Positions 4,844 to 31,704 of a DNA stretch of 64,000 nt are shown one piece after another. A model generated the notes under the pieces. That model made no database searches and was not told the origin of the DNA. It saw only the letters and a program-made list of their open reading frames with translations. Both the position numbers and the translations under genes were made by a program. This DNA comes from an uncultured Aliarcobacter sp. (GTDB taxonomy: Bacteria > Campylobacterota > Campylobacteria > Campylobacterales > Arcobacteraceae): contig CAXXLV010000002.1 in NCBI GenBank assembly GCA_963664305.2, positions 64,001 to 128,000 on the forward strand, given 5' to 3'. Positions within the stretch are counted from its first letter, which is position 1; every line of letters begins with the position of its first letter.

Positions 4844-4859
4844 ACCCATTAGTTAGATA
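4844..4859 (+). repeat. Left terminal inverted repeat of island
   Basis: acccattagttagata matches the reverse complement of 31144-31159 (acctattagttaaata) at 14/16. Confidence 0.8.
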
Positions 4860-4947
4860 CATAAAACTTACACTCATTAGTATAAATTTTATGTACAATA
4901 GTTGATTTACTATGATAATATAGGGAAAATTATTTTTAGGATTTCCT

Positions 4948-6366
4948 ATGTTAAAAAATTTTATTACAAATTTAGAAATTTACACTCCCACAATTAAATC
5001 AAATAATAATCTCCCAATAGCTAACGAAAATGGTGAGGTCATTTATTATAAAAAGATTGAAAATAATAATGATGAATCAAACATCTATTATGAATTTCCT
5101 TTTGTAGTTAAAAGTGATGGAACTCTTTGGTATGAAGCTAATATGTATTTATTATGGAAAATTGATAATAATCCTACAATTGATCCCCAAACATTAAAAA
5201 ATCACTCTTTTTCATTGCAAGATTATATTAATTTTTGCGAGAGAGAAAATATTGATTGGAGTGTTGCAAAAAAAATTACATCTAGACCTAATTGGAAATA
5301 TAGAAAATATTTAGATGAAAGACTATTAAATGGTGAAATATGTCCAAATACACTGAAAAAAATTATTAGTCCCAATACATCTTTTTATAATTATATGATA
5401 GATGTTAGAGGACATTCTTTTGATGTTAAATTATTTAATTTAATAAAATCAACTATTTTCAATAAGAATAAGTATGGAAGAATTTTTCTCAAGGATGTAA
5501 ATTGTTATGATATTAATCAAGTTAATATATCTGTGAATCGTTATGATGAAAGTATAATAGATGATGGTAAAAAATTAAAACCATTGACTTATAAAGAGCA
5601 GAGTATTTTGTTTAATACATTAAGCATTTTAAATAATTATGAAATGAAATTGATTTTTCTTTTTTCAGTTCTTACTGGAGCTAGAATTGAAACAGTTCTT
5701 ACATTACGCTTGAAACATTTTGTTAATAGTTTACCTATAAATTATTCTGAGAATGAAATTTTAAAATGGCAAAATAATCAAGAAAAGTTTGATTCTATTT
5801 CAAAATATTTTTTACCTGTAGGTCCAGGAACAGGTGTAGATACTAAAAAAGATAATAATTATGATTTAGTTTTGTCAAAAAGATTAAAAGAATTAATCAT
5901 TACGTATATAATTTCTAAAACAGCATTTAATCGTAGAAGTAAAGCAAAGCCTCAATCTAGTGAATTAGAACAATATGTATTTCTTTCAAATAGAAGTAAC
6001 CCTTATTTTATATCATCTACTGATATACATAGAAAAGAAAATAAAAATAAAAATAAACAAAAAGGGGGAACAATAAATACTTTTATTTGCAATACTTTAA
6101 AACCTAAATTAAAAGAATTAAATAGATTTTTTCCTTTTCATTTTCATAACTTGAGAGCAACTTTTGCAATGAATTATCTGATAATAAATCAACCATTAGT
6201 AGATAAAGGAATGATGACTCAACTTCAATTAGCTTTAAATTTACAAAAGTTAATGGGTCATAAAAAAATAACAAGCACCATGAAATATATTGATTATTAT
6301 AGTCTAACTAAAGATATAAATCAAGCTCATGACTTTCATGAAGAAAAACTTTTAAGTTGGTTATAA
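4948..6366 (+). CDS. Tyrosine recombinase (GinA-like)
   Basis: TGARIETVLTLR (R), HFHNLRATF (HxxR), LMGHKKITSTMKY (H, Y). Confidence 0.9.
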   Translation: MLKNFITNLEIYTPTIKSNNNLPIANENGEVIYYKKIENNNDESNIYYEFPFVVKSDGTLWYEANMYLLWKIDNNPTIDPQTLKNHSFSLQDYINFCERENIDWSVAKKITSRPNWKYRKYLDERLLNGEICPNTLKKIISPNTSFYNYMIDVRGHSFDVKLFNLIKSTIFNKNKYGRIFLKDVNCYDINQVNISVNRYDESIIDDGKKLKPLTYKEQSILFNTLSILNNYEMKLIFLFSVLTGARIETVLTLRLKHFVNSLPINYSENEILKWQNNQEKFDSISKYFLPVGPGTGVDTKKDNNYDLVLSKRLKELIITYIISKTAFNRRSKAKPQSSELEQYVFLSNRSNPYFISSTDIHRKENKNKNKQKGGTINTFICNTLKPKLKELNRFFPFHFHNLRATFAMNYLIINQPLVDKGMMTQLQLALNLQKLMGHKKITSTMKYIDYYSLTKDINQAHDFHEEKLLSWL

Positions 6367-10777: not shown

Positions 10778-11398
10778 ATGAATTGTATAAATTTTAATAA
10801 TGAAAAGATCAATCCATCAAAAATAATATGTGTCGGAAGAAATTTTGTTGATCATATTACTGAATTGAACAATGAAATACCAGAAAATATGGTAATCTTT
10901 AATAAACCCAATTCTTCAATTTCTCAAGATCTATTTTATTTTTCTGAGGATACTCGATTTGAAGGAGAACTTTGCTTTTTAGTTGTAAATAAAAAAATAA
11001 CAGGTATAGGTTTTGGACTTGATTTAACTAAAGCAAATATACAAAATAAAATGAAAGAAAAGGGATTACCATGGGAAAGAGCAAAGTCGTTTAATGGTTC
11101 TGCTGTTTTTAGCAACTTCATTGAATTTGATGGTGATATGAAAAATTTAACATTTAAACTTTTTATAAATGAAAAACTTCAACAAGAAGGCAATTATGAA
11201 CTGATGATTTATAAACCTGAAATAATGGTTGAAGAAATTGAAACGTTTATGAGTATAGAAGATGGTGATATTATTATGAGTGGTACTCCTAAAGGAGTAG
11301 GAACTTATAAAGTTAATGATACCTTTAAATCTGTAATATATTATAAAGAAGAAATTTTAATAGAACATATTTGGGATGTAAAAAATAACAATAGTTAA
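10778..11398 (+). CDS. Island-borne full-length FAH-family protein (paralogue of the disrupted host gene)
   Basis: KIICVGRNFVDH, FNKPNSS, FEGEL, GLDLT, KGLPWERAKSF, GDIIMSGTPKGVG. Confidence 0.93.
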   Translation: MNCINFNNEKINPSKIICVGRNFVDHITELNNEIPENMVIFNKPNSSISQDLFYFSEDTRFEGELCFLVVNKKITGIGFGLDLTKANIQNKMKEKGLPWERAKSFNGSAVFSNFIEFDGDMKNLTFKLFINEKLQQEGNYELMIYKPEIMVEEIETFMSIEDGDIIMSGTPKGVGTYKVNDTFKSVIYYKEEILIEHIWDVKNNNS

Positions 11399-14025: not shown

Positions 14026-14317
14026 TATTTAAATTATTTCCTACATTTAAATTTAATGTATCATTTGCTCTTACATTTACACCTACAAAGTTTGCATCAT
14101 TTATCTCAATAATACTAATTTTCCTTTTGAAATATTTCATCAAATTTATTTTGATTATCTTTTATCAAAGTTCTAAATTCTGTATTATTTTCCAATTTAT
14201 TATAAACTTCTTGTTTTGACAAACCCATATTTTTTAGAATAATTATTTTCTCTTCTATTGTTCCATAATTATATTTGTACTTTTCTTCTTCTGACTGGAA
14301 AACTGATTTTTGTTGAA
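14026..14317. repeat. ~290-bp direct repeat of 21882-22173 (immunity-gene 3' end plus start of next stalk)
   Basis: Near-identical DNA at offset 7856. Confidence 0.9.
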
Positions 14318-14609
14318 AAATTACTTTTGAGTTATTTGATTCATTTTTATCAACATTCTTGAAATATTTAAACTGAAATTTAAATATAAAAATTAATAAT
14401 AAAAATTGAATAATAAAAAAAATTGTAAAAAACTTTTCATTATTAAAAAATTTTCTTTCAAAAATAAAAATTATTGCAGAAAAAATTACATAGAAAAAAA
14501 CTAATACATAAATATTTATTTGATACATTTTAGCTATATATGAAAATAAAGCTATTCCTATTAAAAATATAAATATCACTAACAAATAATAAAATATTTC
14601 TTTAATCAT
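14115..14609 (-). CDS. Putative immunity membrane protein (paralogue of 21971-22471)
   Basis: About 3 TM segments; C-terminus KYKYNYGTIEEKIIILKNMGLSK...FQKEN shared with paralogue; overlaps upstream tip stop. Confidence 0.65.
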   Translation of the reverse strand: MIKEIFYYLLVIFIFLIGIALFSYIAKMYQINIYVLVFFYVIFSAIIFIFERKFFNNEKFFTIFFIIQFLLLIFIFKFQFKYFKNVDKNESNNSKVIFQQKSVFQSEEEKYKYNYGTIEEKIIILKNMGLSKQEVYNKLENNTEFRTLIKDNQNKFDEIFQKEN

Positions 14610-14931
14610 TTGACAATACTCCTTCGATTATTTCTCTTGGCTTCTGTGTTGCAATTTGTTCAATAATAATTGGTGTTACAATTGTTCCAACTCTTTTTTT
14701 TATTTCAGAATCTATACTTGATAATTTTTCTTCAAATTTTAATCTTTTAGTATTACTAGTTAAATTTGGATTGTTAATTTGATTTAAAATTGTATTTCTC
14801 GCCGATATTCTTTCTTTTAATTCTTTTATACCATCATATTTTGTATCAGAAAAAGAACCTATTGTACTTGCAATCATTGTTTCATTTAAATTAATTTTTT
14901 CTAAATCTATCTTATTATAAATTTCACTCAA
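14602..14931 (-). pseudogene. Orphan toxin-tip fragment homologous to the tip of 22461-25004
   Basis: ERISARNTILNQI...KPREII versus DRVKARNTVQNQL...EPKEIV. Confidence 0.6.
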
Positions 14932-15651: not shown

Positions 15652-15924
15652 TTACTTTTTATTAAAAATATTCTTTATATTATCAAAAACAAATTTCTTA
15701 GAAGGTGGATAATTTAAAATAAAAGCAATTACTATTAGGATACAACTTAAAATCCATTTAGCATAATCGCTAAAATATATAGATATTAAACCTGTAATTC
15801 CACCTAATAAAACTATATATACGGAATATACTAGCCCTTCCTTAAGTCCATTTTTTCGACTAAAATAAATTATTCCTATGACTATTAATATAATTCCAAT
15901 TACAATATTACTATTCATTTTCAT
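15652..15924 (-). CDS. Putative immunity membrane protein
   Basis: About 3 TM segments in 90 aa; overlaps the end of the upstream cassette. Confidence 0.6.
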   Translation of the reverse strand: MKMNSNIVIGIILIVIGIIYFSRKNGLKEGLVYSVYIVLLGGITGLISIYFSDYAKWILSCILIVIAFILNYPPSKKFVFDNIKNIFNKK

Positions 15925-17977
15925 TTCCTACTTTTTTTTCATCTAATTCTTTCACAATAATTTTTCCTCCTGCTATCATTCCTTGTGTTACTACATTATC
16001 TATTATATTATTTGTATGTGCATCAATTCTATTATCCAACTTATTAATTTTTGTTATAGCTGTTGCTGTCTCTTTTTGTTTTTTCAAACTAACTATTGCT
16101 TTAGAAGAATTATATACACTTTTAGCAGCTCCTAAACCACTTGGTGCAACTGCACCAATAGCTGTCATCATTCCAACATCAAACCAATCAACTTCAACTT
16201 CATCGACATTTATATTTTTTGGTTGCCAACCTTTATCATTTAATTGACCAACAACTTGAGGTACTGTTTGCATTCCAAACTCTATACCTCCACCAACTGA
16301 CATACCTATTATAACTGGTATTACAAAAACTGGTAAATCATCCCCATTACTCTTATCCAAAGAAGCAAATTCGTTATTGTTATTTACCAACCAACTATTA
16401 TCTTTATTAAATATTGAAGGTTCTGTTGTAACTATTCCTGTATTATGATTATTAGTATCTGATAAGTAACTATTAAAGAGATTATTCAATATAAAACTCA
16501 TATCATTTACTGTATCTTGTGCTATTGCATTTTGATATTCATTGTGTACATCTCTATTTTGTGTTATATCTATACCATTTGCATTTTGTATTGCTCCTGC
16601 AAATTCCTGTCCAAGTGTATATATTGTATCTTTTGTTGAATCTTGATTTTTATCATTTGAATAAATTGTATCATTTTCAAGTGAGATATACCCTTTTACT
16701 TGTGTACTATTTACTCCTGTTTCATCTGTTGATATTACTTTTACACCATTTGCTAAAGAGTAACCTAATTCATTTTCTAAAGCTTTTAACATTTGGTTTG
16801 CATATATTTGTTTTTCTTCAAGTGATAAATTAGAATCTTGTAGTTTTTCAGCTAATTGAGGATTTTCCATTAAAAGTTTTTTATATGCGTTATATTGATC
16901 TACACTTTGTCCTGTTTGTTTAAAGAAATCTTGAATTCCTACATCATCCAATGTTGCTATTTTTTCAACTGTATCTATTATCTTTGAAGCTATTTTTGCA
17001 TCTTCTTTTATTTGATTCAATCCATTTACAGTTAAAATCTAGTATCTAAAGTTGCATCTACTTTTGTTCCTGTTGAGCTTGAATATAAATCTTTATTTAT
17101 ATTTTGTGTATCTGTATTTAATTTTGTTAAATCATCACTATTCTCTTTATCTTTTATAGTTATATTCCCTTGACCTAATGTTGCTAATGTTTTACTTACA
17201 TTTACATCTAATCCTGTTGATGAGTTATATCCTACTGAAGATATTCCACCTTGTTGTGGTTCTTCTTTTTGATTTACTATTTTTGTACTACTTAAATTAT
17301 AATTTAGATTTAAACCTAAACTTTGATTTGAAGAGAAAGAAGAGTTTGACAAGTTTGAAAAAGTTAAAGTATTTGTTGATAAATTTAGATTTTTATTATC
17401 TACAAAGTTTTCATTCTCATTATAATTTCCACTTGCTAACAAAGAACCTTTTAGATTAGTATTTTCACCAACATTTACATTTAGATTATTTGCAGTAACT
17501 GAACTCAACACTGTTTGTTTTGTTTGTGTTACTCCATTATTTACACTAAATCCTCCATTTACAGAACTTACTTTTCCTACATCTAAACTTGGTGTTCTAT
17601 TTGCTGCTGCTCCTGCACTTCCAAATCCTAGTCCTGCATTTACATTAAATCCTTTTGAATTTGAAGAATATTCATCTCTTAGGGATTCTATATTTAAATT
17701 ATTTCCTACATTTAAATTTAATGTATCATTTGCTCTTACATTTGCACCTACAAAGTTTGCATCATTTGAAACATTTATATTCATATTATTTGCTAATAAT
17801 TGTGAGTTGTTATTTATTATAGTATCACTTGAAGAATTACTTTTTCCATAACCCAACCCAGCGGTTCCACCACCACCTCCATACATTGTAAATGCTATAC
17901 TTCCATTTATATTTTCACTATCATTTGTATTTGAGTAATTATCTTGACTTGCTTTTACATTTAAGTTATTTGTATTT
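15911..17977 (-). pseudogene. Haemagglutinin-repeat C-terminal cassette, split by a 1-bp deletion near 17037
   Basis: ORFs 17032-17886 and 15911-17020 join as DTRLLTVNGLNQIKED if one base is restored, as in sibling copies; 17038-17977 is near-identical to 23925-24864. Confidence 0.85.
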
Positions 17978-18008
17978 TATTGATTTTAGATTCAGACTCA
18001 ATTTTTAT

Positions 18009-18452
18009 CTATTTCACTTTTAGATAATCATATTTATTTGGATTATTCAACAAATTTGGATTAATCTCTTTTGTGTAACTTTGAGGTTCTTTTTTTGGGA
18101 AACCTCCATTAATGTCTTTAATTATGAGGTATGTTAAGCCTAAAATTGATGCTATTAACATACATAATGATATTAACAATACAAATTTATTTTGTCCTTT
18201 TCCAAAGTTACATTTATTTTTCCACATTATGAACATTAATAATAATCGTCCCTCTGCAATTGATAAAAAAATTAATAATGCATATTTATATTCATTATTA
18301 AAATTAAAAATAATTATATATATAAAATAGTTTAAGATAAGGGAAGGTACTATACATAGTATGGAACCTATAAATAATTTAAAATTTTTATTAATATCTG
18401 TATAGTTCAAGATTAATCGTTCATACCACTTCCATAATTTACTTAGACTCAT
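18009..18452 (-). CDS. Putative immunity membrane protein
   Basis: About 3 TM segments; overlaps the end of 18439-19860. Confidence 0.6.
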   Translation of the reverse strand: MSLSKLWKWYERLILNYTDINKNFKLFIGSILCIVPSLILNYFIYIIIFNFNNEYKYALLIFLSIAEGRLLLMFIMWKNKCNFGKGQNKFVLLISLCMLIASILGLTYLIIKDINGGFPKKEPQSYTKEINPNLLNNPNKYDYLKVK

Positions 18453-19860
18453 ATTTTATATCTCCTACTTTTATAAGATTTAAATTTAATCCACTATTCT
18501 CTATTGTCCATATCGGTCTAGGTTTTATTATATTATTTCGATTAAATATTTTTATATCTTTTATATTATTATTTTCATAAGATGGTAAATCATTTGATAT
18601 ATTTACTATTTCATCACTATTTGCACTATCTCTTTGTATCTCCAATATTTTTGCATTTGTATTAAATGTATTTATACTTTGCACTAAATTATAATAACTT
18701 AATCCTGCTCCTAATTTTTGATATATTACTTTATTAGTTGGTAATCCCAATAATGCTGGAATATAAGTATTCTGTGCGGCACTAAAAGTATCATCATGTG
18801 TTTCATTTGAAATATTCCTAACCGTATCAACTCCCCAAGCAACACCTGAAACTATTGGACTTGGTACTAATCCAGCTGTTGTTAAGGCTGCACTATTAAA
18901 TACATTTGTATTTTGTTCTCCTAAACTTGAAGGTTGATATTGTGTATCTTCATAATTATTTACATCCATCATTCGAACTAATTTTCCTGTTTGCAAATCT
19001 ACATAATAGTTATTTTTTGCATCTTCTTGTATTTGTTGTTTTATTTCATTTATTACAAACAACACTTCATCTTTTATATTTTGATTTTCTGCTTTTTTTA
19101 ATACTTCATCTAATTTTTTCTGTCCATATTCATCAATCATAGCATTTTGAGTTAATTCATACAAATAATTTATATTTTCCAAAGAAAGATTTGAACTATT
19201 TTGAGCAAGAGCTTCTTTCAAATCATTCGCATTTTGTGTAAATAATAATGCTTTTTCTTCTATTGATAATTGTCTATCATCAATTCTTCCTTCACCACTA
19301 TTTAGCTTACTTGCATCTTGAAGATACAAACTTGTATTTGCTTTTAATGTATTTAAATCTTGATTTGTTACAACAATTTTATTCAATATAGGATTACTAT
19401 TTAATTGAACATTATTATACACGTAAGAAGAAAAATCTAATCCACTTGCTGAGTAATTACCAAATATATTCGCATATTCTTCTTGTAATTGTGTTGTATC
19501 TCTTAAGTAAGTTTCTCCTTGATTTTGTCTTACATGAGCTACTTCATGTCCTAAAGTGTTTGCAGAACTTAGAGCATTTTGATTTAGGATTTTATCAAGG
19601 TAGATATTTGAATTTATATTATCTTCATTTGTATATGTTGAACCATATTTATTTAATATCGCCATTTTTACTATATCTATATTTACTCCATAAGTACTTG
19701 CATATATTTGTGCATAATCATTTATTGCTGTATCTATTTGTGTTTGTGAATAATTAAATTGATTCTCTATAATATCTACAGTTTTTCCATCATTTTTTAG
19801 AGCTAGGGCTTTTTGTACATCTAAATCTATTGAAAATGGAGCTGTAACTGCCCTTTTCAA
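18439..19860 (-). CDS. Orphan C-terminal cassette (HExxH domain plus variable tip)
   Basis: DLDVQKALALK and LGHEVAHVRQ...EGRIDD shared with 22461-25004; 19277-19586 near-identical to 23233-23542; unique sequence after DD. Confidence 0.8.
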   Translation of the reverse strand: MKRAVTAPFSIDLDVQKALALKNDGKTVDIIENQFNYSQTQIDTAINDYAQIYASTYGVNIDIVKMAILNKYGSTYTNEDNINSNIYLDKILNQNALSSANTLGHEVAHVRQNQGETYLRDTTQLQEEYANIFGNYSASGLDFSSYVYNNVQLNSNPILNKIVVTNQDLNTLKANTSLYLQDASKLNSGEGRIDDRQLSIEEKALLFTQNANDLKEALAQNSSNLSLENINYLYELTQNAMIDEYGQKKLDEVLKKAENQNIKDEVLFVINEIKQQIQEDAKNNYYVDLQTGKLVRMMDVNNYEDTQYQPSSLGEQNTNVFNSAALTTAGLVPSPIVSGVAWGVDTVRNISNETHDDTFSAAQNTYIPALLGLPTNKVIYQKLGAGLSYYNLVQSINTFNTNAKILEIQRDSANSDEIVNISNDLPSYENNNIKDIKIFNRNNIIKPRPIWTIENSGLNLNLIKVGDIKYESK

Positions 19861-20111
19861 AAATTGTCATTTTTATTATTTCCCTTATCTTTTTTATAAC
19901 TTTTATAAATAGAAATACCTTGAACAATAGCTACTATAGAACCTCCAACAATAATTAATATCCCCATCATAATATTGGATATTTCATCTGTTCCCCATTT
20001 TGTATAAGAAGGGTCTAAAATTGTTACAATACCCATAAATATTGCAATAATAGCAGTTAAAAATGTACTATTAATTTTTGATAATAAACTATTTCTCATT
20101 ATTTTTCTCAT
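19857..20111 (-). CDS. Putative immunity membrane protein
   Basis: Two TM segments, 84 aa; overlaps the upstream cassette end. Confidence 0.6.
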   Translation of the reverse strand: MRKIMRNSLLSKINSTFLTAIIAIFMGIVTILDPSYTKWGTDEISNIMMGILIIVGGSIVAIVQGISIYKSYKKDKGNNKNDNF

Positions 20112-21999
20112 TTTCCATTAATTTATTATTCCCATATCCTAACCAGCCCCATTTAGATGTAGGTATTGTGTCAAAATTCTGCCCAGAATAAATATCATAG
20201 GAGTTGGCTATAGGTTTTGGAAGCCAACCAGTTGCTCCATATTCAACAATTGTCATTGCAGGTCTAATAGTTAAATTTCTAGCCCACTCTGGCATATTAT
20301 TATAAGCAGTTGAAATATCTTGTGATATATCATCTCTTTTTAAATAAACTGTACTTACATTATTTCCAAACTGATTAATCACTTCTCCTGATTTATTTAT
20401 TACTTTTATCATTGGTTGATTCATATTTTTATCTATTTCTCCTTCTATTTCTCTATGTATATCATTTTCATTTGTTGGTGTATTAAGATAACTTTGTATT
20501 GCTAATACAGCCGGGATTATTAAAAGAGGACTATCATCCCCACCAGACTTATCAAGTGAAGAAAATTGTACATTATTTCTATTTAGCAGATTATTACTAA
20601 TATTAAATACACTTGGTACTGATGTTACTATCCCTTGATTATGTGTATTTGTATCAGCTAAACTTCCACCAGTAATAATACTTAATGCTCCATTTGTATA
20701 AAAGGCTAAATCTTCTCCAAAGTTTGTTGCATATATATTTTGGTCTTTATCATTTGACACAAATATTTTATCTTGTTTATCCATATCATGACTTATTTCA
20801 TGTCCCAAAGATGCTATCAATTGTGTTGTCGAGTCATTATATTTATCATTTACATAACTAGTATTAGTTTTATCATCAAAGTATCCTTTTACTTGTGTAT
20901 TATTTACTCCTGTTTCATCTGTATAAATTAATTTTACATCATTTGACACATATCCTAATTCTTGCATTACTGTTAGGGCTAATTCTTTTAACATATTTTG
21001 TTTATCTGTTGGGTTTAAATCTGAGTTTTGTAATTGTTTAGCTAATTCTTCATCATTTGCTATTTTTGCTTTAACACCATTATATACATCTATATTTTTT
21101 TGAGTTTCACTAAAAAAATCAGTTAATCCTACTTTATCATTAGTTACTATTTGTTCTATTGCGTTTGTTATTGCCGTTGCTGTATTATAATCATCTTTTA
21201 TTTGATTCAATCCATTTACACTTAAAAGTCTTGTATCCAAGGTTGCATCTACTTTCGTTCCTGTTGAGCTTGAGTATAAATCTTTATTTATATTTTGTGT
21301 ATCTGTATTTAATTTTGTTAAATCATCACTATTCTCTTTATCTTTTATAGTTATATTCCCTTGACCTAATGTTGCTAATGTTTTACTTACATTTACATCT
21401 AATCCTGTTGATGAGTTATATCCTACTGAAGATATTCCACCTTGTTGTGGTTCTTCTTTTTGATTTACTATTTTTGTACTACTTAAATTATAATTTAGAT
21501 TTAAACCTAAACTTTGATTTGAAGAGAAAGAAGAGTTTGACAAGTTTGAAAAAGTTAAAGTATTTGTTGATAAATTTAGATTTTTATTATCTACAAAGTT
21601 TTCATTCTCATTATAATTTCCACTTGCTAACAAAGAACCTTTTAGATTAGTATTTTCACCAACATTTACATTTAGATTATTTGCAGTAAGAGAACTCAAC
21701 ACTGTTTGTTTTGTTTGTGTTACTCCATTATTTACACTAAATCCTCCATTTACAGAACTTACTTTTCCTACATCTAAACTTGGTGTTCTATTTGCTGCTG
21801 CTCCTGCACTTCCAAATCCTAGTCCTGCATTTACATTAGATCCTTTTGAATTTGAAGAATATTCATCTCTTAGGGATTCTATATTTAAATTATTTCCTAC
21901 ATTTAAATTTAATGTATCATTTGCTCTTACATTTGCACCTACAAAGTTTGCATCATTTATCTCAATAATACTAATTTTCCTTTTGAAATATTTCATCAA
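20089..21999 (-). CDS. Orphan haemagglutinin-repeat C-terminal cassette
   Basis: Stalk DANFVGANV...ATLDTRLL shared with siblings; LGHEISH; KSGGDD boundary; unique tip; true homology begins at about 21958. Confidence 0.82.
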   Translation of the reverse strand: MMKYFKRKISIIEINDANFVGANVRANDTLNLNVGNNLNIESLRDEYSSNSKGSNVNAGLGFGSAGAAANRTPSLDVGKVSSVNGGFSVNNGVTQTKQTVLSSLTANNLNVNVGENTNLKGSLLASGNYNENENFVDNKNLNLSTNTLTFSNLSNSSFSSNQSLGLNLNYNLSSTKIVNQKEEPQQGGISSVGYNSSTGLDVNVSKTLATLGQGNITIKDKENSDDLTKLNTDTQNINKDLYSSSTGTKVDATLDTRLLSVNGLNQIKDDYNTATAITNAIEQIVTNDKVGLTDFFSETQKNIDVYNGVKAKIANDEELAKQLQNSDLNPTDKQNMLKELALTVMQELGYVSNDVKLIYTDETGVNNTQVKGYFDDKTNTSYVNDKYNDSTTQLIASLGHEISHDMDKQDKIFVSNDKDQNIYATNFGEDLAFYTNGALSIITGGSLADTNTHNQGIVTSVPSVFNISNNLLNRNNVQFSSLDKSGGDDSPLLIIPAVLAIQSYLNTPTNENDIHREIEGEIDKNMNQPMIKVINKSGEVINQFGNNVSTVYLKRDDISQDISTAYNNMPEWARNLTIRPAMTIVEYGATGWLPKPIANSYDIYSGQNFDTIPTSKWGWLGYGNNKLMENEKNNEK

Positions 22000-22471
22000 A
22001 TTTATTTTGATTATCTTTTATCAAAGTTCTAAATTCTGTATTATTTTCTAACTTATTATAAACCTGTTGTTTTGACAAACCCATATTTTTTAGAATAATT
22101 ATTTTCTCTTCTATTGTTCCATAATTATATTTGTATTTTTGTTCTTCTGTTTGAAAAGCTGATTTTTGTTGAATGGTCACTTTTTCATTTATCGGTTGAC
22201 TATTCTTAGTGAATTCTGTATATAATGCATGTGATGCCACTATTAAAAACGCTCCTAAAAAAAAGTATTTATCTAAAAACTTTTGTAAAAAAATTTTTAA
22301 AATGAAAGATAAAAATATAAAAGTTAAGATATATATAAAAATTAATAAATATACATTATTTATAGCTATATTATCATAACTAATCAATGTTATTAAGGAA
22401 AAACTAAAACCTAAAAATATTGAGAATATACCCTTAAAAAAATCATTAATTTCATTCCAATTAATTTTCAT
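21971..22471 (-). CDS. Putative immunity membrane protein (paralogue of 14115-14609)
   Basis: About 3 TM segments plus shared C-terminal domain; overlaps the stop of 22461-25004. Confidence 0.65.
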   Translation of the reverse strand: MKINWNEINDFFKGIFSIFLGFSFSLITLISYDNIAINNVYLLIFIYILTFIFLSFILKIFLQKFLDKYFFLGAFLIVASHALYTEFTKNSQPINEKVTIQQKSAFQTEEQKYKYNYGTIEEKIIILKNMGLSKQQVYNKLENNTEFRTLIKDNQNKFDEIFQKEN

Positions 22472-25004
22472 TAGTATTTCCTTCAGGTAAGTTGTCTTGT
22501 ATTATTTCTTTCACTATTTCCTTTGGTTCAGTATTTAAAATTGTTTTAGTAACCTCAGGTATCAAAAGAATTTTTGTTTTATCAATAATTTGATTATCAA
22601 TTTTTTCTACTCTATTATTAAGTTTATTTTGCAAAGTAGGGCTTGTTGCTTTATCTAATTGATTTTGTACTGTATTCCTAGCTTTAACTCGGTCAATAAC
22701 ATTATTTACATTAGTTGATGTTTTTGTACCTGTTGAACCAATTCCCACAGATACAGCGGTTTGAGTCCAATCAATATTATCTACAATTTTTTTAATAGCC
22801 TCCGCTGGATTAGCTAGTAATTCTTGTCTTATTTGTTCATTATTAACCAATTGTGTAACAGTTTGGTTAAGTAAATCAGAACTAGCCGTAAATCCTGCAT
22901 TTTTAAGTGATAATTCCATACTCTTTTTAGTAATAGCTTCAGCAATATTTTTTACTACTTCTCTTCCACCTAAAGCAAGTTCACTAGCTTTTAAAGATAA
23001 TATCATATTATCCACTAACTTATTTGCGTCATCAACTTGTTGTTTTTGAGAAACATATATATTATCAAATTCTTCTTGACTTAATCCTCTTAAAGTACCA
23101 TCATTTATTACTTGTTTTAAAATTTCACTTTCTGTATTTCCTGTTTCTATCAATGCTTTTATTCTATCTTTTGCATTATCTGATTGTAAATCTTTTGTTC
23201 TATCCATATCTTGAAGCGTCCAGTAACTTTCGTCATCAATTCTTCCTTCACCACTATTTACCTTACTTGCATCTTGAAGATACAAACTTGTATTTGCTTT
23301 TAATGTATTTAAATCTTGATTTGTTACAACAATTTTATTCAATATAGGATTACTATTTAATTGAACATTATTATACACGTAAGAAGAAAAATCTAATCCA
23401 CTTGCTGAGTAATTACCAAATATATTCGCATATTCTTCTTGTAATTGTGTTGTATCTCTTAAGTAAGTTTCTCCTTGATTTTGTCTTACATGAGCTACTT
23501 CATGTCCTAGAGTGTTTGCAGAACTTAAAGCATTTTGATTTAAAATCTTATCTAAATATATATTTGAACTAGTACTATCTGCATTTGTATACGTTGAACC
23601 ATATTTTCCTAATAAAGCAACTTTTGCTGTTTCAATATTTATTCCATAAATATCTGCATAAATTTGAGCATAATCATTTACTGCATTGTCTATTTGTTCT
23701 TGAGAATAATTTTGTTGATTTTCCAAGATATTTATTGTTTGTCCATTATCTTTTAATGCTAGTGCTTTTTGTACATCTAAATCTTTTTGTACATCACCTA
23801 TATGATCAAATGTATCAGTAATTTTAAATGCATCAGAGGTTGCAACATCACCTATAGCTTGACCTAATCTTTTTGTTCTTTCTAAATCTTCTTTTATTTG
23901 CTTTCTACCATCTTCAGTTAAAAGTCTAGTATCTAATGTTGCATCTACTTTCGTTCCTGTTGAGCTTGAGTATAAATCTTTATTTATATTTTGTGTATCT
24001 GTATTTAATTTTGTTAAATCATCACTATTCTCTTTATCTTTTATAGTTATATTCCCTTGACCTAATGTTGCTAATGTTTTACTTACATTTACATCTAATC
24101 CTGTTGATGAGTTATATCCTACTGAAGATATTCCACCTTGTTGTGGTTCTTCTTTTTGATTTACTATTTTTGTACTACTTAAATTATAATTTAGATTTAA
24201 ACCTAAACTTTGATTTGAAGAGAAAGAAGAGTTTGACAAGTTTGAAAAAGTTAAAGTATTTGTTGATAAATTTAGATTTTTATTATCTACAAAGTTTTCA
24301 TTCTCATTATAATTTCCACTTGCTAACAAAGAACCTTTTAGATTAGTATTTTCACCAACATTTACATTTAGATTATTTGCAGTAACTGAACTCAACACTG
24401 TTTGTTTTGTTTGTGTTACTCCATTATTTACACTAAATCCTCCATTTACAGAACTTACTTTTCCTACATCTAAACTTGGTGTTCTATTTGCTGCTGCTCC
24501 TGCACTTCCAAATCCTAGTCCTGCATTTACATTAAATCCTTTTGAATTTGAAGAATATTCATCTCTTAGGGATTCTATATTTAAATTATTTCCTACATTT
24601 AAATTTAATGTATCATTTGCTCTTACATTTGCACCTACAAAGTTTGCATCATTTGAAACATTTATATTCATATTATTTGCTAATAATTGTGAGTTGTTAT
24701 TTATTATAGTATCACTTGAAGAATTACTTTTTCCATAACCCAACCCAGCGGTTCCACCACCACCTCCATACATTGTAAATGCTATACTTCCATTTATATT
24801 TTCACTATCATTTGTATTTGAGTAATTATCTTGACTTGCTTTTACATTTAAGTTATTTGTATTTATATATAAATTCTCATCTGCAACAACATTTGAACCT
24901 ACTATATTTGTATTTGTACTTAATTTTTCATCTGTATTTATATAAATATTTTTTGCATTTAGGTTTGACAATAGATTTTTATTTACTATTAGGTTTACAC
25001 TCAA
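22461..25004 (-). CDS. 5'-truncated haemagglutinin-repeat exoprotein (CdiA/TpsA-like C-terminal portion)
   Basis: Asn/Ser/Gly-rich beta-helix-like repeats (LNVNVGENTNLKGSLLASG), HEVAH motif, variable tip; no signal peptide or TPS domain seen. Confidence 0.82.
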   Translation of the reverse strand: MSVNLIVNKNLLSNLNAKNIYINTDEKLSTNTNIVGSNVVADENLYINTNNLNVKASQDNYSNTNDSENINGSIAFTMYGGGGGTAGLGYGKSNSSSDTIINNNSQLLANNMNINVSNDANFVGANVRANDTLNLNVGNNLNIESLRDEYSSNSKGFNVNAGLGFGSAGAAANRTPSLDVGKVSSVNGGFSVNNGVTQTKQTVLSSVTANNLNVNVGENTNLKGSLLASGNYNENENFVDNKNLNLSTNTLTFSNLSNSSFSSNQSLGLNLNYNLSSTKIVNQKEEPQQGGISSVGYNSSTGLDVNVSKTLATLGQGNITIKDKENSDDLTKLNTDTQNINKDLYSSSTGTKVDATLDTRLLTEDGRKQIKEDLERTKRLGQAIGDVATSDAFKITDTFDHIGDVQKDLDVQKALALKDNGQTINILENQQNYSQEQIDNAVNDYAQIYADIYGINIETAKVALLGKYGSTYTNADSTSSNIYLDKILNQNALSSANTLGHEVAHVRQNQGETYLRDTTQLQEEYANIFGNYSASGLDFSSYVYNNVQLNSNPILNKIVVTNQDLNTLKANTSLYLQDASKVNSGEGRIDDESYWTLQDMDRTKDLQSDNAKDRIKALIETGNTESEILKQVINDGTLRGLSQEEFDNIYVSQKQQVDDANKLVDNMILSLKASELALGGREVVKNIAEAITKKSMELSLKNAGFTASSDLLNQTVTQLVNNEQIRQELLANPAEAIKKIVDNIDWTQTAVSVGIGSTGTKTSTNVNNVIDRVKARNTVQNQLDKATSPTLQNKLNNRVEKIDNQIIDKTKILLIPEVTKTILNTEPKEIVKEIIQDNLPEGNTNEN

Positions 25005-25033
25005 TTTTTACCTCTACTTCTTGCTTTCATATG

Positions 25034-25059
25034 CGTTCCCAACGGGGACGTTGGGAACG
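25034..25059. repeat. GC-rich perfect hairpin, REP-like
   Basis: cgttcccaacg-ggga-cgttgggaacg: 11-bp stem, 4-nt loop. Confidence 0.75.
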
Positions 25060-25061
25060 AA

Positions 25062-25222
25062 AAAAAGTTTCCATTCTCATCATAGTTTCCACTTGCTATT
25101 ACTGAGCCTTTTAGGTGTGTATTATTTTCTACATTTACATTTATATCTTAGGCTTTGATATTTGCACCTTCTATTTTTCCATCATTAGATATATTTAGGT
25201 TTAATTTTTCTGATTGAACCAT
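25062..25222 (-). pseudogene. Divergent haemagglutinin-repeat fragment
   Basis: MVQSEKLNLNISNDGKIEGANIKA*DINVNVENNTHLKGSVIASGNYDENGNF, homologous to the stalk. Confidence 0.65.
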
Positions 25223-25244
25223 ATAGACCTATATTCCTTTTGTA

Positions 25245-25436
25245 TTATCTATGTTTTTCATAAAGTTCCGAAAGTGGTATTTGTTTTGTAGGTGAAGAAG
25301 AATCATAATAATACCCTTTTTGAGGAGTGAAATTTTCATTACCACAACCAATAATACAAGAATAATATTGTGGTTCAGATTCAACACAACCACTAAATAT
25401 TATTACTGTTAATAAAATTAATATTAAATTTTTCAT
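25245..25436 (-). CDS. Small lipoprotein
   Basis: Lipobox IFSGC after a hydrophobic signal. Confidence 0.6.
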   Translation of the reverse strand: MKNLILILLTVIIFSGCVESEPQYYSCIIGCGNENFTPQKGYYYDSSSPTKQIPLSELYEKHR

Positions 25437-27699: not shown

Positions 27700-28134
27700 T
27701 TAATTTTCTTCAACAATTATACAATTTGTTTTATAGTAATTCATATCTTCAATTAAAATATCAAATATATCATAAATATTTTTCATTCTTATATTTACAT
27801 AAAAATTTGATAAATTATCTGCATTATGGTTTAAATTTGGTTTGTTATTTGGTACATTACATATATTTTCTTCAAAGCTCCATATCGCATCTTTTATAGA
27901 CAACTTTGAAAGCTCATTTTTTATAGTTTTTAACTCATTTTTAAATTTTTCTAAATCTTCAAACTTTACACCATTTTTTTCATCATAATACAAATTATTC
28001 ATTACTATTGGAAATCTACTCCCCCATTTACTATTTTCCAATCTATAACAGATAGTTGAAAACCAAGAATATAATGTTTCAGAATAACCAAATTCCATCC
28101 AATCCGAATATATTTTAAACCCTACATTTTTCAT
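27700..28134 (-). CDS. Imm70-like immunity protein
   Basis: VGFKI...LYSWFSTICYRLENSKWGSRFPIVMNNLY resembles the Imm70 signature. Confidence 0.7.
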   Translation of the reverse strand: MKNVGFKIYSDWMEFGYSETLYSWFSTICYRLENSKWGSRFPIVMNNLYYDEKNGVKFEDLEKFKNELKTIKNELSKLSIKDAIWSFEENICNVPNNKPNLNHNADNLSNFYVNIRMKNIYDIFDILIEDMNYYKTNCIIVEEN

Positions 28135-31167: not shown

Positions 31168-31704
31168 ATTGCAGAACTTAACAATGAAGTTCCAGAAGAT
31201 ATGGTGTTTTTTATAAAACCAAATTCTGCAATTTCAGATAAATTAAATTTCCCACAAAATCAAAATTCTTGTCATTATGAAGCGGAAATTTCTTTTTTAA
31301 TTGAAGATGATAAAATCACTGGTGTTGGATTTGGTTTGGATTTGACATTAAGAGAAGTACAAAGTAAATTAAAAGAAAAAGGACTTCCTTGGGAAAGAGC
31401 AAAAGCATTTGATGGTTCAGCTGTTTTTTCTAAATTTGTAAGTTTTGCAGATGAAATTTCTAAATTAGGAATAGAGCTTTATATAAATGGAGAACTAAAA
31501 CAAAAAGGTGATTACTCTTTGATGATAAATAAACCAATCGATATTATAAAAGAGGCAAAAACTTTTTTAAGCTTTGAAGATGGAGATATTCTAATGAGTG
31601 GAACTCCAAAGGGAGTAGGGGCATTTAAAAAAGGTGATATTTTTCTTGGAAAGATACTTTTTGATGATAAAATTATATTAGAGCAAGAGTTTAAAGTCTT
31701 TTAG
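31168..31704 (+). pseudogene. 3' part of the interrupted host FAH-family gene
   Basis: IAELNNEVPEDMVFFIKPNS...HYEAEI...GLDLT...SGTPKGVG; in-frame stop upstream at 31159; continues the 4766-4843 fragment. Confidence 0.9.

Follow-up and report, generated by a model that had tools for sequence, protein, structure and literature searches.

An array of orphan cdiA-like cassettes

We analyzed a 64,000-nucleotide stretch of DNA from an uncultured Aliarcobacter sp. (positions 64,001 to 128,000 of contig CAXXLV010000002.1 in assembly GCA_963664305.2), which we call the window. The part of the window between 14.1 and 25.3 kb is best explained as an array of orphan cassettes that resemble cdiA genes, of the two-partner secretion (TPS) or TpsA/CdiA-like type, together with their immunity genes. 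The array lacks the N-terminal TPS/stalk part of such genes and the cdiB partner. (This region has about 25% G+C, and all of the cassette features are on the minus strand.) Just before the toxin tip, each cassette encodes a pre-toxin domain of about 230 amino acids, with an HExxH motif that is degenerate in one of the four copies. This domain, and the boundary at which it gives way to the tip, are our main subject.

The four cassettes are built from five open reading frames (ORFs): A847 (22461-25004), B636 (20089-21999), C473 (18439-19860), and D284 plus E369 (17032-17886 and 15911-17020). The order of parts is a variable length of FHA-2 (filamentous haemagglutinin) repeat, the pre-toxin domain, a polymorphic tip, and a small, strongly hydrophobic ORF (166, 84, 147, and 90 amino acids long after the four cassettes).

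The first cassette is the longest. Residues 1-360 of A847 (23925-25004) are FHA-2-type haemagglutinin repeats that end with ...DATLDTRLL (Fil_haemagg_2, E = 5.3e-25). They are followed by a pre-toxin domain of what we call the A type (residues 361-591; 23232-23924), which includes HEVAH (residues 501-505; 23490-23504), EEYA (23427-23438), and the boundary sequence RIDD (23232-23243; the two aspartates are residues 590-591). Tip 1 (residues 592-847 and the stop codon; 22461-23231) diverges from C473 at 23233 and has no match in Pfam. A 166-residue membrane ORF (21971-22471) overlaps the end of tip 1. It has no match in Pfam either, and its position and its hydrophobic N-terminal half make it a candidate immunity gene.

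B636 begins with a remnant of the FHA-2 repeats (residues 1-257; 21229-21999; Fil_haemagg_2, E = 8.9e-09). Its pre-toxin domain is of the B type (residues 258-489; 20533-21228), with HEISH at residues 400-404 (20788-20802) and the boundary GGDD at 20533-20544 (the aspartates are residues 488-489). Tip 2 has a hydrophobic opening (residues 490-636 and the stop codon; 20089-20532), and an 84-residue membrane ORF, its candidate immunity gene, lies at 19857-20111. In another genome from the same genus (G077), an orphan tip and the 80-residue ORF downstream of it are 72% and 70% identical to tip 2 and the 84-residue ORF. These co-conserved genes behave as would be expected of a toxin-immunity pair.

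C473 begins within a 5'-truncated A-type domain (residues 1-195; 19276-19860), with HEVAH at residues 105-109 (19534-19548) and the boundary RIDD at 19276-19287 (the aspartates are residues 194-195). Tip 3 (residues 196-473 and the stop codon; 18439-19275) opens with RQLSIEEK and has no Pfam match over the cut-off; the same tip follows the boundary in a homologous protein, P0006. The 147-residue membrane ORF at 18009-18452 is a candidate immunity gene, given its position and hydrophobicity.

D284 and E369 form a single B636-like cassette that is split, relative to B636, by a 1-nt frameshift just after ...DATLDTR. D284 is the FHA-2 repeat part (Fil_haemagg_2, E = 6.5e-16) and ends with DATLDTRF and a stop codon. 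E369 begins with a degenerate B-type domain (residues 1-228; 16337-17020), in which QEFAG (residues 138-142; 16595-16609) takes the place of HExxH and the boundary is NGDD (16337-16348; the aspartates are residues 227-228). Tip 4 has a hydrophobic, glycine-rich opening (residues 229-369 and the stop codon; 15911-16336). By its position, the 90-residue membrane ORF at 15652-15924 is a candidate immunity gene. (It has a match to LiaF-TM that is below the cut-off, with E = 8e-4.)

The B-type tips of the window (20089-20532 and 15911-16336) and of the orphans in G077 have hydrophobic, glycine-rich openings, and all of the candidate immunity ORFs are small membrane proteins. This suggests that the B-type tips could be membrane-acting toxins, similar to the ionophoric family of CdiA C-terminal regions (CdiA-CT; PMC11630599).

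The FHA-2 repeats of A847, B636, and D284 are mutually 99-100% identical up to ...DATLDTRLL. (The repeat part of A847 is 100% identical to D284, which corresponds to its residues 78-360, and 99% identical to B636; B636 and D284 are 99% identical.) These three ORFs have neither a TPS domain nor a convincing start codon, and the reading frame of A847 opens directly after stop codons.

We then asked how the cassettes relate to systems for contact-dependent growth inhibition (CDI). Fil_haemagg_2 repeats precede the pre-toxin region in A847, B636, and D284. Each polymorphic tip comes after a conserved joint and is followed by its small ORF, and orphan modules lie downstream. A Pfam scan found no TPS domain in any of the cassettes in the window. 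There is no CdiB/ShlB-type transporter gene beside them, and no full-length recipient gene in the genome, of which all but 8,000 bases were covered. The only TPS domain in the genome (C2:747226-747978) is in an unrelated ORF of 861 residues, and the only match to ShlB (C2:743956-744855) is about 680 kb from the window; A847 has no match at this TPS/ShlB pair. Because they lack TPS domains and an adjacent transporter, the cassettes are best filed as orphans of a CdiA/CdiB-type system, not as a complete effector. The toxin parts are probably not deployable from here, and the candidate immunity ORFs may still protect.

A family of pre-toxin domains with HExxH

No Pfam or NCBIfam model matches the pre-toxin domain, which lies between the Fil_haemagg_2 repeats and the tip, at over its cut-off. 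To find relatives of the A type, we compared residues 365-600 of A847 to 1.84 billion representative proteins with phmmer. This gave 68 matches at E ≤ 0.001, and 29 of these were at E ≤ 1e-30. HExxH is present in 58 of the 68. Of the other ten, five are fragments that do not reach the motif and five are weak or repetitive matches. (P0022, a protein of 5975 residues, has 47 separate stretches that match the helical arm of the domain, residues 50-132 of the query, and lacks HExxH. Perhaps it is a repeat protein made of copies of the helical hairpin of this arm.)

To examine conservation, we aligned 42 sequences (39 of the matches plus A847, B636, and E369), each of which extends for 130 or more residues ahead of HExxH and 170 or more beyond it. 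The domain begins right after ...DTRLL and is conserved throughout. Several positions are nearly invariant: His401 (40 of 41 sequences), His501 (41 of 42), Glu502 (all 42), His505 (41 of 42), Gln510 (40 of 42), Glu523 (38 of 42), Tyr525 (41 of 42), and Asn571 (all 42).

The A and B types are only about 20% identical. Nevertheless, three lines of evidence agree with the proposal, in an earlier note made from the DNA sequence alone, that there are two sub-lineages, and they indicate that these are homologous. The two types are collinear when compared with hhalign (part of the score comes from the FHA flank that they have in common). Their predicted topologies are the same. And they are found side by side, both here and in G077. 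In an alignment of 17 B-type sequences (alignment A3), HExxH is present in 16; the exception is E369, the frameshifted copy from the window. In the B type, the position of Glu523 is occupied by asparagine.

A conserved boundary at the start of the tip

The earlier note reported that the similarity between paired cassettes ends abruptly at two aspartates, and that the DNA identity of the first pair stops within their codons. Our comparisons reproduced its coordinates exactly. In 30-nt segments, the DNA of A847 and C473 is 73-83% identical from 23776 to 23537 and 93-100% identical from 23536 to 23237; in the segment that starts at 23236/19280, identity is 37%. Compared base by base, the last position in common is 23233/19277, the second base of the second aspartate codon. 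There is one mismatch in the 68 nt before this breakpoint, and 15 of the 19 positions after it differ. The DNA of B636 is nearly 100% identical to that of D284/E369 across the FHA repeats (21911-21250/17720-17060) and is 45-73% identical across the next ~700 nt, which encode the pre-toxin domain. Identity is at most 42% from 20521/16325 on, just past the codons for the aspartates (20533-20538/16337-16342), and the two can no longer be aligned there. At the protein level, the break is softer for B636 and E369 than for A847 and C473, because both tips open with hydrophobic stretches. In all four copies, as the earlier note also described, HExxH (or the degenerate QEFAG) lies 85-90 residues upstream of the two aspartates.

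Does the same break occur in other genomes? An ungapped scan for breakpoints gave 171 pairs of proteins, most of which reflect indels in loops inside the domain, so we considered only the pairs with nearly identical upstream sequences. In four groups of homologs (P0003/P0004/P0059, P0002/P0006, P0050/P0053, and P0083/P0085), nearly identical domains are joined to unrelated tips, and the break is right after the boundary dipeptide. The same break separates orphan o3 of G077 from P0072, and orphan o2 from o4. Similarly, two orphans from Vibrio sp. HA2012 share ...DKSKGEN and then diverge. Conversely, a tip of the A847 type is found behind three different domain endings (IDD, LED, and VDF, in P0007, P0036, and P0055). 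As judged from these alignments, a break that recurs at the boundary, in unrelated pairs from other genomes as well as in the window, is far beyond chance.

Conservation across the family ends at the same place. The mean pairwise BLOSUM score per column, across the 42 homologs, is positive up to residues 589-591 and is about zero beyond them. So, once homologs were collected and conservation was plotted, conservation collapsed exactly at the boundary that had been proposed.

The residues at the boundary are more variable than the window's four cassettes would imply. (Two B-type rows were misaligned there, and leaving them out gave 40 A-type rows.) Position -3 is V, I, M, or L in 38 of the 40. 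Position -2 is aspartate in 27, glutamate in 10, and asparagine in 3, and so is acidic in 37 of 40. Position -1 is Y (16), F (11), D (5), H (3), N (3), P (1), or L (1). For the B type, the 17 rows of alignment A3 end in GDD (12), GED (3), or GDN (1), and the motif is absent from one; position -2 is acidic in 16 of the 17. The spelling GEN occurs at one Vibrio locus. On these alignments, A-type domains end in the motif [VIML]-[DE]-[YFDHN], and B-type domains in G-[DE]-[DN]. The earlier note had proposed the two aspartates as a new delimiter. The position is indeed a conserved tip boundary, and the PT-VENN domain was detected neither in the cassettes nor in nine full-length homologs, but "DD" is not the conserved motif: it is the spelling used by one subclade.

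Many tips also resemble each other just beyond the boundary. The first residue is arginine in 20 of 33 A-type rows. Irrespective of the toxin domain that comes next, roughly half of the A-type tips start with R-x-L-x3-E-x3-[IL]. In our reading of the alignments, this opening is probably a common N-terminal module of the tips. It may be a shared module for entry or translocation.

Full-length relatives and their tips

We compared nine long matches (2501-4085 residues) to Pfam. All nine have Fil_haemagg_2 and eight have the N-terminal TPS domain; PT-VENN, DUF637, and HINT are found in none of the nine. No Pfam family covers the part of these proteins from the last FHA repeat to the tip. Across the full-length relatives (2245-4085 residues), the order is TPS domain, FHA repeats, zincin-like domain, and tip, and some of the tips belong to known families of toxins. 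In the nine long homologs, the tips over the cut-off are LHH and EndoU. Among 36 shorter members of the family, we found two TNT tips and one each of Ntox15, Colicin_D, Tox-GHH, WHH, LHH, Ntox43, Colicin-DNase, and Scabin-like.

These tips bear on the idea that the HExxH domain is itself the toxin (an effector similar to Tox-MPTase) and that the downstream regions are accessory. The nearest named cluster in the ESM Atlas does carry Tox-MPTase4, with a score of 0.84, which is a lead only. However, the domain is constant while the regions downstream of it are polymorphic, the downstream regions of relatives carry recognized toxin domains (LHH, EndoU, TNT, Colicin_D, and others), and the immunity-like ORFs change together with the tip and not with the domain. 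We consider it very improbable that the domain is the toxin.

The genome G077 illustrates how the window's cassettes might relate to a complete system. It has a gene for a ShlB/POTRA transporter (tpsB), and then a TPS/FHA gene for a protein of 2245 residues (tpsA) with a B-type domain at its end (...LDKSNGDD, followed by the tip). After tpsA come small ORFs and then four or more orphans, whose A- or B-type domains are truncated at different 5' points. Vibrio sp. HA2012 has the same layout.

The A-type relatives are from metagenome-assembled genomes (MAGs) of Campylobacterales, Sulfurimonas, Nitratifractor, and Arcobacter, from Vibrio sp. HA2012, and from MAGs of Ectothiorhodospiraceae and Moraxellaceae. 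The 17 B-type homologs include relatives named Arcobacter and Aliarcobacter butzleri. Within the taxonomic family of the window, the A-type query is sporadically distributed, with matches in 6 of 151 genomes and 4 of 22 genera.

The domain is predicted to be a small zincin

We modeled residues 361-600 of A847 with AlphaFold2 (AF2), using 36 aligned sequences. The model is confident (predicted local distance difference test, or pLDDT, of 93.3; predicted template modeling score, or pTM, of 0.91). In the model's numbering, three helices (4-29, 35-68, and 75-93) are followed by three strands (97-103, 109-113, and 120-125). HExxH (residues 141-145) is on the next helix (132-149), and Glu163, which corresponds to Glu523, is on the helix after that (159-185). 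A last helix (202-223) leads to the boundary: Arg588-Glu592 form a strand (228-232), and the model is disordered from residue 235. The model of the B type is somewhat less confident (pLDDT of 84.7, pTM of 0.85). It has the same order of elements, with a two-residue bridge at the GD of the boundary. The A type thus has an HExxH helix and a glutamate on the next helix, as in zincins; the B type keeps HExxH and has the asparagine at the glutamate's position. As modeled, the domain would be a minimal gluzincin core, with three N-terminal helices, a three-stranded sheet, the HExxH helix, and a helix that bears the glutamate.

Structure and profile searches gave no significant match to solved zincins, and all of the leads are weak but mutually consistent. 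A profile search against the PDB found M4 peptidases across HExxH...NExxSD, with E = 0.38. The leading matches from Foldseek were CapP, IrrE, peptidyl-Lys peptidase, abylysin, AsaP1, Spartan, and HtpX (best E = 0.046). In BFVD, the leading matches were SprT-like and IrrE-like proteins. Among the 36 members, matches to Pfam below the cut-off were to SprT-like (PF10263; 7 members, best E = 3.7e-4), eCIS_core (6), M91 (3), Peptidase_M78 (PF06114; 3 members, best E = 0.031, with the first member scoring 13.1 bits against a cut-off of 22), and DUF6782 (3). The ESM Atlas had no match at 0.9 or above. Every lead to a fold or profile that we obtained, weak as each of them is, points to a zincin-like region (IrrE/CapP, SprT/Wss1, HtpX, or M4).

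The earlier note had suggested a comparison of this region to DUF4157 (PF13699, now "eCIS_core") as well as to zincins in general, and the leads bear out only the general likeness. Six of the 36 members match DUF4157 at E ≤ 1 (best E = 0.0099), and the scores obtained, 14.3-16.5 bits, are below Pfam's cut-off of 22. When we used hhalign to compare 40 sequences of the domain to three DUF4157 domains from another genome (G413), which make a very shallow profile, just 19 columns were aligned, with a probability of 0.8% and E = 0.072. Membership in DUF4157 is therefore unsupported.

Is the domain an enzyme at all? It could instead be a non-catalytic scaffold, that is, a module for folding or translocation that also provides a homology arm. 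Any metal site would then be for stability only, and a protease from the host or the target cell would release the tip. The B type, which lacks the glutamate ligand, fits this idea, as do the weakness of all the fold matches and the state of E369, which lost HExxH yet keeps an open tip and an immunity ORF. But HExxH persists in 41 of the 42 sequences of one alignment and 16 of the 17 of the other, even where identity between lineages falls to about 20-30%, and the glutamate of HExxH, the general base, is invariant (42 of 42), which would be needless in a purely structural metal site. Also, the sole degenerate copy is in a frameshifted pseudogene. A scaffold without catalysis seems quite unlikely to us.

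Another way to read the fold is that the domain is an active zincin that works in trans, on a component of the target cell's envelope or on another effector molecule, so that it helps the tip to cross, and that the boundary is a mere domain edge and recombination joint. This would agree with the conserved catalytic motif and the zincin leads. The nearest structural neighbors (IrrE, CapP, Spartan, and Wss1) all cut other proteins in trans, and the variable dipeptide at the boundary fits a joint better than a strict site. On the other hand, the domain is always immediately N-terminal to the tip, and its last conserved residues are modeled as a strand that packs onto the domain, with disorder right after it. 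The residue at position -2 also stays acidic in 37 of the 40 A-type rows and in 16 of the 17 B-type rows. And, according to PMC3482391, other classes of polymorphic toxins have releasing peptidases in this same position. On balance, we think that action in trans is unlikely.

Comparison to known pre-toxin modules

The domain's place in the protein is that of the PT-VENN domain of CdiA (PF04829). Both lie between the FHA-2 repeats and the CdiA-CT, both serve as the joint for the exchange of orphan tips, and in both cases the start of an orphan falls within the domain or upstream of it. PT-VENN is believed to bring about the release of the tip (PMC9086364, PMC9424206): as described in PMC9424206, CdiA-CT needs a precise cut after VENN, where the pre-toxin domain ends, if it is to enter the target's cytoplasm, and the pre-toxin domain is thought to carry out this processing. 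Unlike PT-VENN, our domain has a predicted zincin core (HExxH...E) within about 230 residues, and it does not match PF04829. We found no match to PF04829 in the cassettes at E ≤ 0.1, nor in the nine full-length homologs at E ≤ 0.01. A search of the whole genome is uninformative here, as the family gave no matches in control genomes either. The end motif differs as well. A 2022 review gives eight pre-toxin end motifs (VENN, (E/Q)LYN, WVHN, TENN, LYVT, DAMV, NEALV, and LPEN; PMC9086364), and none of these is an aliphatic-acidic-aromatic/acidic triplet.

Two other kinds of module are known just before polymorphic tips. In some CdiA proteins of Pseudomonas (the WVHN class), autoproteolytic BIL/HINT modules directly precede the CdiA-CT (PMC9086364). 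HINT is the only protease in the row for the type V secretion system (T5SS) in the 2012 classification (PMC3482391). We found no match to HINT in the cassettes or in the nine full-length homologs. HINT chemistry is the cyclization of asparagine or cysteine, in a different fold, while our domain has a putative metal site. The other kind is the PVC-metallopeptidase or DUF4157, a zincin that is N-terminal to the polymorphic tips of PVC toxins and other toxins of extracellular contractile injection systems (eCIS), and which was proposed to release them by autoproteolysis (PMC3482391). Like our domain as predicted, it is a small zincin with HExxH, a nearby glutamine, and a downstream glutamate. However, DUF4157 is at the N-terminus of cargo that is not of the T5SS type, while our domain follows FHA repeats; the conserved glutamine is at H+3 in DUF4157 and at H+5 here; and the spacing from HExxH to the glutamate is shorter here. 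These searches and comparisons set the pre-toxin domain apart from PT-VENN, DUF637, and HINT and, as far as our tests go, from DUF4157.

The domain also differs from known minimal zincins, namely IrrE/PprI, CapP, ImmA (M78), SprT/Spartan/Wss1, and the catalytic domain of HtpX. Those cut other proteins in the cytoplasm or the membrane. Ours is part of a secreted effector, and it has an N-terminal arm of three helices that includes the nearly invariant His401. In a literature search that left subscription journals mostly outside, we found neither a T5SS/CdiA protein described as having a zincin or HExxH pre-toxin domain nor an account of CDI in Arcobacter, though the supplementary tables of PMC3482391 may list such architectures.

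A possible role in releasing the tip

What might the domain do? The chances seem about even to us that, in the full-length effector, it is a cis-acting, zinc-dependent peptidase that cuts its own chain at or near the boundary and so stands in for PT-VENN. Once the C-terminal region reaches the target cell, the domain would cleave its own chain at the boundary or within a few residues of it. It would thus do the job that is ascribed to PT-VENN or BIL/HINT domains in other classes of CdiA. The constant pre-toxin sequence and the FHA-2 repeat also act as homology arms when tips are swapped.

We propose a peptidase that acts in cis because of the analogy to other toxins and because of the domain's position next to the tip. 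Three further observations support this. First, the catalytic motif is kept across deep divergence. Second, the only decayed copy of it, in E369, is in a pseudogene. Third, the boundary is a strand in the model, and the zincin sheet is the one sheet that the domain has. In zincins, this sheet binds the substrate.

Several observations weigh against self-cleavage. Strict cleavage sites do not usually vary as the boundary dipeptide does. Glu523 is the presumed third zinc ligand of the A type, and the B type has asparagine in its place; any metal site of the B type would thus be different. Of the boundary, the model shows only that it is a strand and that the other strands are those of the zincin sheet, so a position in the active-site cleft is presumed. 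In proteins whose tips start with R-x-L-x3-E-x3-[IL], the functional edge of the domain may sit a few residues beyond the boundary. Finally, with no TPS domain in the window's cassettes, and with the genome's TPS/ShlB pair both distant and unrelated, secretion from the window is not likely.

A broader version of self-cleavage would cover a whole clade of CdiA-like proteins, from Campylobacterota and some Gammaproteobacteria. In this clade, PT-VENN would be replaced by a built-in zinc endopeptidase that cuts its own chain at a docked C-terminal strand, and the conserved acidic residue of this strand may be a latency switch that sits on the metal until the C-terminal region reaches the target's periplasm. 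We rate this version at slightly below an even chance.

A CdiA-like class with a metalloprotease motif in its pre-toxin domain would offer a direct handle on the release of CdiA-CT, which is still unsettled: point mutants, chelators, and mapping of the new N-terminus could all be used. If self-cleavage is correct, this would be the first class of CDI system whose toxin-release catalyst is an identifiable and mutable enzyme. The domain family and its end motif also add to the list that is available for finding polymorphic toxins and orphan tips, and large haemagglutinin-repeat genes of Arcobacter-group bacteria can be re-read as systems for delivering toxins between bacteria.

Other features of the island

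The remnant of a further module lies beyond the fourth cassette, at 14115-14931. It comprises an ORF of 109 residues (14602-14931), which is 28% identical to residues 732-837 of A847 (the end of tip 1), and a membrane ORF of 164 residues (14115-14609). The C-terminal halves of this 164-residue ORF and of the 166-residue ORF that overlaps tip 1 (21971-22471) are almost identical, and their membrane-spanning N-terminal halves differ. The A847 tip, close to its start, and the tip of P0055 have a motif similar to one in these two candidate immunity ORFs (...LS.EE...).

The 5' junction of the array is at 24975-25250. On the 5' side of A847 are just fragments of FHA with in-frame stop codons and a GC-rich hairpin (25035-25058), and there is a conserved junction sequence of about 38 nt (24975-25012). 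The junction sequence is also found at the 5' ends of two orphans in another genome (L032, ~5920-6110 and ~2055-2245). The hairpin, which lies between the stop-riddled FHA fragment and the start of A847, is a perfect 10-bp GC-rich inverted repeat with a 4-nt loop. We considered whether it is a terminator and ruled this out, as the run of T is on the wrong side on both strands. The only other copy in the genome (G000:C2:1293851-1293874; L036, ~4851-4874) truncates an ORF of 140 residues and adjoins one of 177 residues. By eye, and from the motifs of the family, we take the 177-residue ORF to be an IS200/RAYT-like transposase, RAYT being the transposase associated with repetitive extragenic palindromic (REP) elements. 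Because its other copy abuts this ORF, the hairpin looks like a REP-like element. It may mark the point at which an ancestral full-length gene was cut.

Two FAA_hydrolase paralogs on the plus strand (10778-11398 and 31201-31704) bracket a block of about 20 kb of minus-strand genes that includes the cassettes. (The second looks shorter at its N-terminus.) They are 52%-identical paralogs, which rules out a target-site duplication. Upstream of the array, among small lipoprotein-like ORFs, an ORF of 144 residues (27700-28134, minus strand) matches Immunity protein 70 (PF15601; E = 3.8e-25). Given this gene and its surroundings, the island also appears to carry immunity genes that belong to other polymorphic toxin systems.

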